Shown here: positions 6,001 through 12,000 of the stretch, one piece after another
Position numbering within the stretch: position 1 is the first letter of the stretch
Layout: the number at the start of each line of letters is the position of its first letter
IMG/VR virus record: IMGVR_UViG_2737471845_000005
Direction: 5' to 3' (one strand)
Source: a virus
Lineage: Duplodnaviria; Heunggongvirae; Uroviricota; Caudoviricetes
DNA length: 30,396 nucleotides
Made by a program: the position numbers

Positions 6001-9000
6001 GTGGATACACGCAGACTTTAAGCGTGTGCGTAACTACGCATTTCACAAGCGTTTTTTCAAACTCCTGCAACTGGGATTCGATTACTGGACTCCGAGCGGT
6101 GGGGTGATCACGCCTCGAGAACGAGAACTGGTATCAGGCTTCGTTGAGTACCTGTGCGAATCAGTAGGTCGGGAACATACGCCAGCTCTGAGCGAAGCCG
6201 CAGAGCAATATCTGAATACAGTTGCGACACGCAGAACCCGGGATACGGCATTGCTAAAGTCGTTTGAGGCTTTCCGCGAGTGGGTAACCATTCAGGCCGG
6301 ATTTTACACCGAGCATATTTATCCAGACGGTAGCCGCGGGCGCAGGGCAAAATCTATCGCATTTGCGAACATGGACGAAACCGAGTTTCAGCAGGTTTAT
6401 AAATCTGTACTGAATGTGCTGTGGAACTGGATCCTGTTCCGTAAATTTTCCTCTCCGGAGGAAGTCGAAAATGTTGCCGCACAGTTACTGGAGTTTGCGT
6501 AATGGTGGATTTACGTAAAGCGGCGCGGGGGCAGATGTGCACCGTCAGAATTCCTGGCTACTGCAATCACAATCCCGAAACTTCTGTGCTGGCGCATTAC
6601 AGGCTGGCGGGGATGTGCGGAACAGCGACAAAACCACACGATATGCAGGCAGCGATTGCCTGCAGCTCATGCCACGATTTAATCGACGGGCGGGTAAAAA
6701 CCAGCGATTACACCAAAGAAGAATTACGCCTGATGCATGCAGAAGGTGTTTTTCGCACACAAGAAATCTGGAGAAAGGAAGGTTATTTATGATTTACCCA
6801 ACAAATACAGGCAAAAGCGGGGAACACCTTCGTCTCACCACGCTGGAAAGTGTCTGGATTCAGGGAAAACTGCGCATGTGGGGGCGCTGGTCGTATATTG
6901 GCGGCGGTAAGACGGGAAATATGTTTAACCAGTTGCTGACCTCTAAAAAGCTAACAAAAACGGCAATTAATGAGGCGCTCCGGAGGATGAAAAAAGCAGG
7001 TCTGGACAAACCTGAACTTGAGGCTTTTTTGCGGGATATGATCAACGGCAAGCAAAAAAGCTGGCTGGTGCATTGTACTGATGCAGAGGCGTTATGCATT
7101 GATCGGGTGATTAGTGAAGTGCTGGCAGAACACCCAGGATTGATTTGTATCCTCCGGCAAAGATATGAAGGGCGGGGGATGAGTAAGCGCAAAATGGCTG
7201 AATTGCTGAATGATTCACACCCTGAGTGGTGTTACGCCACGTGCCGTAATCGCATAGATGCGTGGTTGAAAATGGCAGAGTTTATGCTCTATCTGCCGAT
7301 GCGTGATGCATTCTCTTCCGGGGATCTAAAAACCGTCTGTTGACTCAATCTGTTATCCGGGGCTATATTCCTCACGCACCAGCAAAATCTGGCGTCGGGA
7401 TTGGCGTCCCGGATAGAGACCGCGACAGATACACGCCGCGAGCGTGTTTTTTATTGTCGTATGCACGCGCACATCTGAATTATGGTGGGCTGTGTGGGGG
7501 CGGAGAGATCCGCGCCGGTCGGTTTCCCGGTTACGCCAACCCTGCACAGTTCACCACCAGATGATTGGCGTCGTCGGTGGTGAGTTATTAAGAAACCACC
7601 AGAGGGCGTCATTATGACAACTCAAATTTCTGTTGAAACTCTCTCCCCGATCACCCATAACCAGATTCCTGTTATTACCACCGAACTTTTGGCGCAGCTT
7701 TACGGCACTGAGCCGGTGCGCATTCGCCAGAATCATCATGAGAACAAAGTACGCTTCGTTGAAGGGAAACACTTTTTCAAAGTTGTTGGTAATGGCCTTA
7801 AAGAATTGCGGGTAGCTTTAAACTACTCACAAAATTTGCGGGTTACTTTAAGTAACTCACAAAATTTGCAACCATCTTTAAGAGGGTTACAAATTTCCCC
7901 GAAAGCCCGCTCCCTCATCCTCTGGACAGAACGCGGAGCAGCCCGTCATGCCAAAATGCTCGAAACCGATCAGGCGTGGGATGTGTTCGAAAAGCTGGAA
8001 GACTGCTATTTCAGACAAAAGGATCCGTCAGCGCCAGCTTCATGCCAGAAAAGTTACGACACGCGAGTTCTCTGTTATCAGCGAGGCGGTGTCACTGTTT
8101 CCACAATTCAGTTGCGGGATGATGATATTGTTATTTCCCTTGAGTCATGGCTGGAACTGGCGAGAGCCAATGGTTGGTTTGTTGTTCGCAGAGATAAACT
8201 GGTGGAAAGGCTGATGCAGCTTTAAAAAAGTTCTTGCAATTTTAGCCATAAACTGCTTCAATTCCGGTACGCTTCGCAAAGCTGTATCGCGAGGCGAACC
8301 AAGCGCATGAACTTTACCAGAACCCGCCATTGAGCGGGTTTTGTTGTTTCTGGTACTGGCGAACCTGATGTTTCATTTCTGGAGCGCGATTCCTGGCGGA
8401 ATACCTAGAATCGAGACATTCTGGTAAAATTGTTTTCAGTACAGGATGTGGAGGTGAGATGAGAGAACTACCTAAAGATTATTTTTTAGGAGTAGATGAT
8501 GAGCTCGTCGATTATCTTGAAAAACAAGGGGAAGAGACGATACGAGAGATTCATCTTTCTAACAAAACCAATGTTGAGAATGGATACAAACTTCTGAACA
8601 TTCAGATTGTTGGAATTGGCTCATCTTTTTTATTGCTGACACAGAAAACTAATTTCGATTTTCTCACCGCCGGAATTACCACATTTACATTACTATGGAC
8701 ATGGTGCGCCATTTACTTGGTATGTACTGGTTTATCTGTGAAGGTTAGGGGCCTGATCAATGCCCCTCCTGATCATCTATATCATGAAAAATATAAGGAT
8801 ATGGAGCCCTCGAGCTTTAAAATATTCGCTGATGCAGGATATTTAGGACCTGATAAGTTATTGCCGCTTATACGAAGGTATCGCCTTGTTGACTTGAGTG
8901 ATACAGCAAGAGAGTTACTGTTGGAAAATGAGAAAATCCGCACGAGTCTCGATAAAGCAAGGATGTATACCATCCTTGCTCCGGTAGCGGCGATGTTTAT

Positions 9001-12000
9001 CTCGGCTGTTTTTTTATATGTTCAATGACTGAGTCGGCAGAATCTCCAACAAAAACACGACGTGTAGCAAAGTCTGCAGTACTTTGTGTTGGAGTTGGTT
9101 TTGGTGCCACGGGTTGCTGAGGTTTATTTTCACCTTGTGGCTTGTTTTTTTCAGACATAAAAATCCTCTTTGTTTGAATTGTTACTTTTGGCGATTTAAC
9201 GATATCAAACACGAGTATATACCGCCAGAAGCTTAATCTGGCACTCCATCTGGCCCCGGCATGTCCCGGGGCTTTTTCGTTGTTAGGCTCCGGAAACATC
9301 CTCGACTTCTTGTTAGCAAGCCTGAGAGCCTGAATCTTACACTTAGCACCATCCGAACTCTCGGAGGTGAGGCTTATGAAAATGCACAATGCCCCTCATT
9401 CCTGGCCTGACTTACTGGAACTCTTACAAAGTTGGTGGCGTGGAGATACGCCGCTGGGTGCAGTGGTTATGTCAATTATTATGGCTGGTTTGCGCATTGC
9501 CTATTTTGGCGGTGGCGGCGGCTGGAAACGAAAAACGCTTGAGATTTTGCTCTGTGGTGCCCTGACGCTGACCTTTGCATCCGCGCTTGAGTATGTCGGA
9601 TGGCCTAAATCACTTTCTGTTGCCATTGGTGGTGGGGTGGGGCTGATTGGTGTTGATGCTATTCGTGGTGCGGCAATGAGGGTCATCGGTAACAAGTTCG
9701 GTGCCCATAAGGAGTAATTAATGCAGACACTTAATTCCCAGCGCAAAGCTTTCCTTGATATGGTGGCATGGTCAGAAGGAACAGATAACGGACGGCAGAA
9801 AACCAGAAATCACGGTTATGATGTTATTGTCGGTGGCGAACTGTTCACTGATTACTCCGATCACCCCCGCAAACTTGTCACGCTAAATCCGAAACTCAAA
9901 TCAACAGCCGCCGGACGTTACCAGCTTCTTTCTCGCTGGTGGGATGCCTACCGCAAGCTACTTGGCCTGAAAGATTTTTCTCCAGAAAGTCAGGATGCTG
10001 TAGCGCTGCAGCAGATTAAAGAGCGTGGCGCTTTACCGATGATTGACCGCGGCGATATTCGTCAGGCAATCGACCGTTGCAGCAATATCTGGGCGTCGTT
10101 ACCTGGTGCAGGTTACGGTCAGTATGAACATAGAATCGGTGACCTGATTTCCCGATTTAAAGAAGCTGGTGGGGTGGTAAATGAAGCTGAGATATAAGCT
10201 GGTTATTGTTGCCTTCTTTGTTACCGTCATCGGTTCTTTTATCTGGTCTGCCGGGCATTACTACAGCAAATATCAACACGAAAAGGAGCGTGCTGATGAG
10301 GCTGTACGAAATGCTGAATCTGCAACAGCCATTACCAGTAACGTCCTGCAATCACTGCAAATCATCAATACAGTTATAGAGGCTAACCAGCATGCAAAAC
10401 AGCAGATCGCACTGGAGTCACAGAGAACCCAGGAAGATATCAAAGTGGCTGTTGCGGATGATGATTGTGCTGTTCGTATCGTTCCTTCTGGCGCAGTTAA
10501 GCGGTTGCACGAATACGCGAACGGTATACGTGTCGGTGCCGGTCGTTCCGTTACCAGCCAGTCTGACGGATGAAACACCCCAGCCAGATTTACCTGACCC
10601 GTTTACGTGGGGAGCCAGCATTAACCTGAATGTTGCGTTGTTGTCAGCGTTAGCACAGTGCAACAGGGATAAGGCTGATATCAGGACTTTTGAGAAAAAC
10701 AGGGCAGCACAAACCAATGGCACGATTAAACGTTGAAGTTATCCCACCAGACAGCGAAACGATGAACGGGATTTTTGCAGAGATTGAACGTAAATATGCG
10801 CATCAGCCGATGACGCCAAAAGTTATCGATGAAATGCAACGCGAAGCGGCGCGCCTTGTACGGCGAGCGACAAACACGAAGGTTACGTTCGTTCGGGACT
10901 GACATTACAGAAGCTCCTTTGATAAGGGGCTTCGATAATGTTAACAACTTGTGGAAACCATCATGGCATCGAAAAAGCTAACGGCAGAACAGCAGCGCCT
11001 TTTCGATGTGCTGACTCCGCTTCAGAAAAGATTCAGCTTAGCCATTATCAAGGGCAAGAATCAGACAGAGGCTTACCGCAAAGCCGGAGGGAAAGCGAAG
11101 GGCGACAACCTCCGCAAAGCTGCGCACGTAATTGCGACAAATTGCGACGTTCAGGCGTTCATTAAGTCTGTTCAGCGTGAAATCATCGATGAGGCCATCA
11201 TGACCCGCGAAGAAGCTCTTAAGCGTTTGTCTAAAATAGGCCGTGCTTCAATCGCCGATATCGCCGAGTTTAGTAATAGCATCGTGGGGGAGGATGAAGA
11301 CGGGAATCCTGTCTATCAAGCCGTCTGGAGCTTCAAGGATTCTTCCCTTCAAGACCCTGACGCGATGAGCGCAGTATCAGAACTGACCTCAGGGAAAGAT
11401 GGTATCAAATTGAAGATGCACGACCCGAAAGCAGCAATAAAGCAGTTGGCTGAATTGCAGGGGTGGGAAGCACCTAAGAAAACCGAACTGACTGGCGCGG
11501 AGGGTGGACCGATCAAGGCCGAGACAACCAATCTCACCGCAGATCAGGCCGCAGAGATTTACCGCAAAATGATGGGGTGATCATGCCTCTTCCGTTTAAA
11601 TTCGATTTCAGAAACCCTGATTACCAGATGGTTTTTGAATGGCGGATGGAACGCCTACAGCGTATTCGCCAGAATCCTGAAATATTGCCTGCACTAAAAC
11701 AGTTTTACCGAACCAATCCGGCTCAGTTCATCATCGACTGGGGCATGACAACGGACCCGCGTAATATTGATTATGGCCTGCCGGTGACCATTCCGTTTTT
11801 ACTCTTCCCTAAGCAGGAGGAGTGGATCCACTGGATTATGGAACGCTGGAGCAATCGGGAGAATGGTATTACCGAAAAATCCCGTGAAATGGGGCTCAGT
11901 TGGACCGCGATCGGACTGGCCTGCTCGCTTTGTCTCTTCAACAAAGAAATGGTTATCGGTTTCGGCTCCCGTAAAGAGGAATACGTCGACAGCACTGGTG

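Follow-up and report, generated by a model that had tools for sequence, protein, structure and literature searches.

A convergent membrane-protein and microprotein gene pair as a mobile accessory cassette of temperate phages

We analysed a 30,396-nt stretch of DNA (hereafter the window; IMG/VR virus record IMGVR_UViG_2737471845_000005, Caudoviricetes) that is part of an Escherichia coli lambdoid prophage, focusing on two genes that face each other and overlap at their 3' ends, one for a 189-residue membrane protein (gene 1) and the other for a 53-residue microprotein (gene 2, or small gene). This pair is a mobile two-gene accessory cassette, or moron, of temperate phages from many Proteobacteria: it is inserted between backbone genes, has its own predicted terminator and deviates in base composition. 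The most fitting description is that of a moron with two genes whose convergent control is like that of toxin-antitoxin systems. From its context, we propose, with a probability of roughly 0.4, that it is a prophage accessory module whose membrane protein would serve exclusion or abortive infection at the envelope, and whose convergent small gene would restrain it both by antisense overlap and through its protein product.

The membrane-protein gene occupies positions 8459-9028 of the plus strand and is preceded by a GGAGG Shine-Dalgarno (SD) sequence at 8450-8454. On the minus strand, the small gene extends over 8997-9158, with an AGAGGA SD sequence at 9164-9169 (AAAGAGGA-N5-ATG, minus strand). 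The overlap, 8997-9028, corresponds to the last 32 nt of the small gene. An earlier note, made from the sequence alone, had described both open reading frames (ORFs), the 32-nt overlap and the AGAGGA site, and all of them are found where it placed them. The minus-strand frame is open from 8997 to 9389, and translation from the ATG at 9158 yields a hydrophilic product of 53 residues, rich in Pro, Lys and Gln (mean hydropathy -1.19). RefSeq annotates the products of both genes as hypothetical proteins, with a PGAP version of the small one that starts at a GTG at 9212, has 71 residues and would take in a conserved non-coding block (see below). Because the SD sequence and the ATG are conserved, and because an in-frame stop codon immediately precedes the small-gene ATG in a Yersinia locus (L006), the 53-residue form appears to be the correct one. 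Judging from these comparisons, the microproteins (MSxSNKP...) represent a previously unrecognised family whose start codon in RefSeq is most probably wrong.

A direct peptide search identified only 16 close relatives of the microprotein, which reflects the weakness of the word index on a low-complexity query and not an absence of homologues. We recovered small ORFs by synteny, by fetching loci through the large protein and inspecting the region downstream. The enteric set included five full-length species-representative genomes, protein loci of Pantoea, Morganella, Proteus and Citrobacter, one metagenome contig and 80 IMG/VR contigs. Every enteric locus with an intact 189-residue protein gene, one Salmonella variant excepted, harbours a convergent small ORF of 46-64 residues with an SD sequence and an ATG, and the two genes share 20-42 nt at their 3' ends. 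This occurrence is far beyond chance. The pair was found in Escherichia, Trabulsiella, Serratia, Yersinia, Pantoea, Morganella, Proteus and Citrobacter. All 80 IMG/VR contigs have the small ORF, intact in 78 cases, with an ambiguous base in one and a frameshift in another.

We collected 47 distinct nucleotide versions of the enteric small ORF. Among 12 divergent ones, Nei-Gojobori analyses gave a lower proportion of non-synonymous (pN) than of synonymous (pS) differences in 66 of 66 pairs (ratio 0.08-0.6, with synonymous sites near saturation), and outside the overlap the pairs differ on average by 0.40, 0.31 and 0.56 at the first, second and third codon positions, respectively. Together with the conserved SD sequence and ATG, these values uphold the initial suggestion that the minus-strand ORF is a gene, and they indicate that it is a real protein-coding gene under purifying selection. 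Both genes evolve as coding sequences under purifying selection, and they travel together. The enteric consensus reads MS-x-x-N-K-P...K-P-x-P...(D/E)-F-x-x-x-R-x-x-V-G-D-S-A-(D/E)...K-K, with variable C-termini. An AlphaFold model of the microprotein, built on a shallow alignment, is mostly disordered with two weak helices (predicted local distance difference test score (pLDDT) 62.6, predicted template modelling score 0.16).

In the 189-residue protein, hydropathy analyses revealed two clear hydrophobic segments, at about residues 71-96 and 170-188; the segment 44-62 is less hydrophobic and highly conserved (IVGIGSSF). AlphaFold predicts long helices at residues 14-62, 68-92 and 134-188 (pLDDT 82.5). 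These hydrophobic segments and modelled helices are in line with the membrane character attributed to the protein at the outset. It is modelled as a three-helix bundle whose hydrophobic third, formed by the helix ends at about residues 44-62, 67-92 and 169-188, would lie in the membrane, and hydropathy and charge, by the positive-inside rule, would place the N-terminal helix and residues 93-168 in the cytoplasm. The family alignment has 28 invariant positions, including E21, E25, N38, E40, W80 and P175, the VGIGSSF motif of the first transmembrane (TM) segment, P104-x-x-L-Y and R140/R142 (RRYRL).

Enteric relatives of the membrane protein form 104 clusters from about 16 enterobacterial genera, and they are always ~189 residues long. 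A profile search of 1.84 billion cluster representatives yielded only 100 proteins at E<=1e-3, nearly all of 160-200 residues, a size range found in all clades; the family is small and compact. We found no Pfam, NCBIfam or PADLOC family for the 189-residue protein, for 60 of its remote relatives or for the 53-residue protein. Neither protein matches a solved structure, a PDB sequence search with the membrane-protein family gave no match and BFVD returned nothing; signal peptides, lipoboxes and virulence domains are absent. In PHROGs, the two proteins match only families of unknown function, phrog_11870 for the membrane protein and phrog_14506 for the microprotein, and our literature search found no description of either protein or of the pair. 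Homology searches, proposed from the start as a check, thus had a mixed outcome: they uncovered relatives of both proteins in many genera and in distant clades, but no family of known function.

The profile search revealed two distant clades (B and C) in GC-rich phages, with ~20% identity to the 189-residue protein of the window. Clade C is composed of loci L024, L026, L028 and L031, and clade B of locus L029 and twelve IMG/VR loci (L113-L124). In every distant-clade locus that we fetched, the 3' end of the membrane-protein gene faces a small, Pro-rich ORF in convergent orientation. The microproteins of the clade C loci and of L029 share the motif P-x-P-x-P-x-R-R (for example MNHPTPIPTTPPPEPERRGWTPPRPMR and MTTATQPKTPQPQPERRDYHPPQDRPQPQRKSS), and their two genes either share 4-9 nt or lie 3-94 nt apart. 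The IMG/VR loci of clade B, with a GC fraction of about 0.6, have overlaps of 29-58 nt (microprotein example, MSSSNNKPVVPDPQPVYRGPTRDGFNKGTPNRQPSTPTPPQR). Among these twelve loci, pN is lower than pS in 36 of 36 pairs of small ORFs, and an SD sequence is visible in about half. The clade B N-terminus, MSxSN(N)KP, recurs in enteric microproteins (MSESNKP..., MSQSNKP...). This shared N-terminus argues that the enteric and clade B microproteins are homologous and that their convergent layout goes back to a common ancestor. When metagenomes and viruses were scanned, the clade C alignment (A3) gave one locus, and the smaller clade B alignment (A7) gave 12 viral loci; tblastn searches of 50,697 phage records with clade B and clade C representatives found nothing outside the enteric clade.

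The pair occupies at least five different genomic slots. In most enteric loci it is located between the late antiterminator and the holin genes, and gene order and related loci establish that the window conforms to this arrangement, namely the moron slot between late promoter/terminator and holin that the earlier note had recognised. The antiterminators encoded upstream belong to at least three unrelated types (Pfam DUF1133, Phage_antitermQ and Antiterm), and the holins encoded downstream to several families. In Citrobacter koseri, the pair separates a tail assembly chaperone-like gene (DUF6246) from the tape-measure gene, with a YebO-family gene just upstream of the latter in one of the two loci. 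A Mu-like phage (L120) has it between the genes for a DNA-circularisation protein (gpN-type) and a baseplate hub protein (gpP-type), and in another clade B locus (L122) it adjoins an AbiJ-domain gene. Two clade C loci (L026 and L028) have the pair in the early region, near a helix-turn-helix (cI-type) gene and with inverted repeats in the upstream intergenic region, and the L029 pair belongs to an island that also encodes an S49-type protease and a resolvase. Conversely, in two E. coli loci (L127 and L128) the slot between Q and the holin is filled by a different convergent pair. The pair is therefore not tied to the Q-to-holin slot, and it moves as a unit.

The cassette is ~0.9 kb long including its own signals, and its AT-richness, noted early on, is clear from a GC fraction of 0.40 (0.39 for the 189-residue protein gene) versus 0.497 for the window. 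The region 8250-9400 is present at >=99% identity in four deposited Escherichia phages and is covered over >=80% of its length in 223 of 5,426 complete E. coli genomes (~4%).

Two Rho-independent terminators are predicted on the plus strand, one of tR' type upstream of the cassette (8318-8343), which has a counterpart at the same position before gene 1 in most related loci, and one that closes the cassette upstream of the holin gene (9252-9273). The terminator scan alone is not above chance, with 3 terminators found versus 3.3 expected in shuffled sequences. Sixteen divergent loci nonetheless retain the downstream stem, which on the plus strand shows compensatory changes and G-U pairs, and the bracketing terminators of the original description thus find support in these predictions and, for the second one, in covariation. 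In four Citrobacter-type loci (L018, L064, L066 and L068), the downstream terminator is replaced by a sequence resembling the start of a tRNA gene (GGCCCTTTAGCTCAGTGGT), ~100-130 nt past the start of the small gene.

Upstream of gene 1, conservation points to an extended -10-like element, TGGTAAAAT (8422-8430, plus strand), as a putative promoter. A G-n-TAAAAT or G-n-TAAGAT motif is located 30-45 nt before the gene-1 start in ~90% of distinct upstream regions across genera, and in many of these regions a terminator precedes it. On the other side of the cassette, a comparison of 16 loci revealed a conserved 30-nt non-coding block, ...TGATATCGTTAAATCGCCAAAAGTAAC (9181-9212, minus strand), which includes a candidate extended -10 element of the small gene, TGATATCGT (TGnTATnGT; 9199-9207, minus strand). 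A 4-bp hairpin, GUUA..UAAC, spans 9181-9200 and shows 3 compensatory changes. Across the 16 loci the block is better conserved than either coding region, and it is common to loci in the Q-to-holin slot, while loci outside this slot have different flanking sequences. As it also stands before the different minus-strand gene of L127 and L128, the block belongs to the slot and not to the pair, and we rejected the idea that it is pair-specific. We similarly rejected a plus-strand late promoter or a qut-like site, as no acceptable plus-strand -10 or -35 element is conserved. Between the block and the terminator, a small hairpin, GCCAGA-N7-TCTGGC (9224-9242, plus strand), is kept with another stem (GCCGC...GCGGC) in loci such as that of Trabulsiella, whereas some loci have lost the pairing; it was not among the structures called by RNAalifold. 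An Rfam scan of the region found no family at E<=1, apart from one chance match.

According to the exclusion or abortive-infection reading, each gene would be transcribed from its own putative -10-type promoter, with the terminators insulating the cassette, and in a lysogen both genes would probably be transcribed face to face. Given a promoter on each side and terminators on the plus strand only, the mRNA of gene 1 would cover the entire small gene in antisense orientation, up to the 9252-9273 terminator, and the small-gene mRNA would enter the 3' end of gene 1, also in antisense orientation. Mutual interference by transcriptional collision and duplex formation would be the outcome. That the microprotein is conserved at the protein level implies that it may also act as a protein; it would probably restrain the membrane protein in an antitoxin-like manner, by binding its cytoplasmic helical part. 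The membrane protein would be the effector, which from the inner membrane would exclude superinfecting phages or abort their infection. When the prophage enters the lytic cycle, Q-dependent late read-through of the upstream terminator would raise the expression of gene 1 and silence gene 2. We favour exclusion or abortive infection because of the moron slots, the AbiJ-domain neighbour and the analogy with HK97 gp15 and with the Tai/Ati and Fc02 genes (see below). The earlier note had regarded the position of the cassette as classic for lysogenic-conversion or abortive-infection genes, and from its context a role of this kind, or in exclusion, is plausible.

Several observations weigh against the reading that we favour. 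Neither protein has a significant match to defence, superinfection exclusion (Sie), holin or toxin families. A few remote members of the membrane-protein family match the '2TM effector' of the cyclic oligonucleotide-based antiphage signalling systems (CBASS) and PycTM, at sub-threshold E values of 0.002-0.02 (best values for the SLATT, CBASS 2TM and PycTM group as a whole, 0.002-0.05), and the 189-residue protein of the window itself matches none of them; we treat these similarities as a lead only. A Salmonella lineage (88 member sequences) has the membrane protein without the small ORF. In its Salmonella enterica representative (L014, 5001-6636), a 192-residue homologue with a different C-terminus is found with no convergent small ORF, and a co-directional 348-residue ORF, missing from the source gene calls and with no Pfam or PADLOC match, begins 10 nt downstream. 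In one IMG/VR locus (L049), gene 1 is intact but an A7-to-A6 homopolymer change right after the small-gene ATG (window 9146-9152) shifts the frame of the small ORF. A single nucleotide at 9008, inside the overlap, is deleted in ~7 of 60 sampled E. coli carriers, which changes both C-termini, making the large protein 190 instead of 189 residues long and the small ORF ~30 residues longer (L126, E. coli XYEH3314); RefSeq annotates only the large gene of this variant. Such altered or absent small ORFs beside the large gene speak against a strictly essential antitoxin, that is, against a strict toxin/antidote relation. Regarding expression, gene 1 directly follows the terminator without room for a promoter in L010-13, L023 and L083, where it would thus be a late gene only, and a generic sigma-70 scan flagged neither of the cassette promoter candidates (8422-8430 and 9199-9207).

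The same variants bear on another, doubtful explanation, according to which the pair is an addiction module of toxin-antitoxin type that plays no part in phage defence, the convergent transcript or the microprotein serving as the antidote to a membrane toxin and thereby stabilising the prophage. Several type I toxin-antitoxin loci have this very layout with convergent 3' overlap, the two genes are tightly linked across clades, and a hok/sok locus is present in the same prophage. However, the large gene remains intact where the small ORF is changed or missing, the putative toxin has 189 residues and is not a small peptide, its 'antitoxin' is protein-coding and under purifying selection, and neither protein matches a toxin-antitoxin family in Pfam, NCBIfam or PADLOC.

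Likewise doubtful is a lysogenic-conversion factor that would alter the physiology of the host envelope, for instance in stress tolerance or colonisation, independently of conflicts between phages. The classical morons bor and lom act in such a way, and the moron anatomy, the low GC content and the occurrence of the cassette in ~4% of complete E. coli genomes, from many sources, would fit with this possibility. The lack of a signal peptide, lipobox or virulence domain is unfavourable to it, as are the surrounding genes, which are phage genes, and the AbiJ-domain gene next to one homologue.

Alternatively, the membrane protein might modulate holin triggering or the timing of lysis, with the small gene tuning this late function. 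At most loci the pair is part of the late operon, past pR'/tR' and with the holin gene as its immediate downstream neighbour, and some phages can express gene 1 only by tR' read-through. We nevertheless consider this hypothesis unlikely, as the pair also occurs among tail, baseplate or early genes and in non-phage islands, is set apart from the holin gene by terminators, and is accompanied by several different holin families. Moreover, the 189-residue protein matches no holin or antiholin family in Pfam, and related prophages have other cargo in the same slot.

A more elaborate version of the defence scenario, which we deem quite unlikely, would make the small gene a dual-function switch, whose mRNA acts as a cis-antisense RNA and whose Pro-rich product reports the translation state of the host. 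Translation of this product should depend on elongation factor P, and its NNKPVVPxPQP core recalls ribosome-binding proline-rich peptides. An infecting phage that shuts off host expression would let the brake formed by the antisense RNA and the microprotein decay, and the effector would then kill or seal the cell. If true, this scenario would define a new class of translation-sensing, membrane-acting phage defence, common to phages of Enterobacterales and of GC-rich Proteobacteria.

We also considered that the microprotein might be the active agent, for instance a proline-rich peptide directed against translation or against a competitor cell, with the membrane protein as a partner that confers immunity to it or transports it. 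The N-terminus and Pro-rich core, MSSSNNKPVVPxPQPVYR, are conserved across clades, several members have polyproline stretches, and the core is reminiscent of the ribosome-acting insect peptide apidaecin (GNNRPVYIPQPRPPHPRL). This likeness is nevertheless short and of low complexity, the C-termini are variable, and there is neither a leader peptide nor an exporter; being antisense to late transcription, the small gene should also be off before lysis, all of which makes this explanation highly unlikely. Finally, that the small ORF is untranslated and the conserved element only an antisense or 3'-untranslated region (UTR) RNA is scarcely credible: the 16 peptide matches, the location in the 3' UTR of the 189-residue protein mRNA and the different RefSeq start could be taken that way, but all 102 pairwise comparisons give a lower pN than pS, variability peaks at the third codon position, the SD sequence and ATG are kept while synonymous sites are saturated, and protein motifs are maintained across clades of differing GC content.

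New functions that act against phages or modify the host come in large part from the accessory genes of temperate phages, and annotation regularly overlooks or misreports very small proteins. Here, an unusual convergent, overlapping layout has been kept over very deep divergence. If the cassette is indeed an exclusion or abortive-infection module, it would provide both a new family of membrane effectors and a new control logic based on a translated antisense partner.

Upstream of the cassette, the window harbours a Q-like antiterminator gene (6537-7343, DUF1133 in Pfam) followed by a promoter-like site (7340-7369). Directly 3' of the Q-like gene is a module (7376-8225) composed of isrK (7376-7452, Rfam 73.7 bits), a C4-type antisense RNA (7478-7561, Rfam 66.7 bits) and an ORF6N antirepressor-like gene (7614-8225). 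It is missing in some related prophages (L001), and in E. coli FDAARGOS_1059 the pair directly follows the Q-like gene without it. We take this layout to be that of the IsrK/AnrP module of Salmonella Gifsy-1, here in an E. coli prophage. Between the module and the cassette, a late-promoter-like element read from the sequence, TTGCAA-17 nt-TTCAAT (8234-8262, plus strand), is followed by a leader of ~80 nt that ends at the 8318-8343 terminator. This leader also precedes the cassette in L081 and L082, and the equivalent element of FDAARGOS_1059, TTGATT-17-TTCAAT, overlaps the stop codon of the Q-like gene; the generic sigma-70 promoter scan of the window did not flag the 8234-8262 element. As the same leader directly follows the Q-like gene in L001, the window may contain two tandem units of pR'/tR' type. 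Downstream of the cassette, the holin gene (9367-9717, Phage_holin_3_1 in Pfam) is followed by those for lysozyme and then Rz and Rz1.

Two other loci of the prophage are of interest. A sok antitoxin RNA was identified at 5018-5193 (Rfam 118 bits), and RefSeq annotates an ORF of the Hok/Gef family at the equivalent place; this is a hok/sok type I toxin-antitoxin locus. At 2995-4630, another convergent pair has the same tail-to-tail arrangement, as had been pointed out earlier, with a 3' overlap of 41 nt. Its members are a 192-residue sce7726-like protein (PADLOC 'cll' match, E 2e-28) and a 365-residue protein of the Beta_protein family PF14350 (PADLOC PD-Lambda-2_C, E 2e-41), and from these matches it is probably a known candidate defence pair.

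The cassette resembles known systems in some respects. The concept of morons is reportedly due to Juhala, Hendrix and colleagues. Like HK97 gp15 and lambda bor and lom, the cassette is inserted among backbone genes of the late operon, has a lower GC content, flanking terminators and promoter-like elements of its own, and its slot carries other cargo in related prophages. HK97 gp15 is, we assume, YebO-like and located in a slot that matches the chaperone/tape-measure locus of C. koseri. Unlike a typical moron, the cassette has two convergent, overlapping genes instead of one, and its products have no sequence relation to characterised moron products.

Type I toxin-antitoxin loci with convergent 3' overlaps include txpA/RatA, bsrG/SR4 and fst/RNAII. 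The cassette shares with them the tail-to-tail genes, the complementary 3' ends of the transcripts and a single membrane product. It differs from them in that the membrane protein has 189 residues and, as predicted, three helices, in contrast with hydrophobic peptides of <60 residues, and in that the opposing gene encodes a conserved, hydrophilic protein and not a non-coding RNA. We rejected a type II toxin-antitoxin system, as the genes are convergent and do not form a bicistronic operon and as there are no Pfam, NCBIfam or PADLOC matches, as well as a holin/antiholin pair, as the 189-residue protein has no holin match in Pfam and the pair is also found away from lysis genes.

SieA and SieB of phage P22 are prophage-encoded proteins of 164-192 residues, similar in this to the 189-residue protein, and SieA is an inner-membrane protein. 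The P22 record annotates esc, an in-frame product that inhibits SieB self-exclusion. Homology to either protein was rejected (hhalign probability 0.4-0.5%, E 0.12-0.15; no Pfam SieB match). The model of the 189-residue protein is reminiscent of CBASS 2TM/SLATT-type and PycTM effectors, which have a similar size and a long cytoplasmic helix leading into paired TM helices; it departs from them by its predicted third, C-terminal TM helix, and all matches to these families are below significance. No cyclase or other signalling gene adjoins the pair in the neighbourhoods that we inspected, and the sole gene with a cyclase domain (Guanylate_cyc) was seen at a single non-phage locus (L024), ~1.25 kb upstream of the pair with two genes between.

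Two systems of temperate phages come close to the reading that we favour. Tai/Ati of phi80 is a pair consisting of a prophage defence gene and a small self-immunity gene, described in a study that also cites HK97 gp15 (PMC11364771), and Pseudomonas phage Fc02 has overlapping exclusion genes (PMC9936078). No homology links them to the cassette, as judged from the tblastn searches of 50,697 phage records, which found nothing outside the enteric clade, and the geometry of the cassette is distinct, with convergent genes and a short 3' overlap. Like them, the cassette is an accessory two-gene unit of temperate phages in which one partner is very small. In both systems expression is wired to lysogenic versus late transcription, and we propose that the cassette may be similar in this respect.

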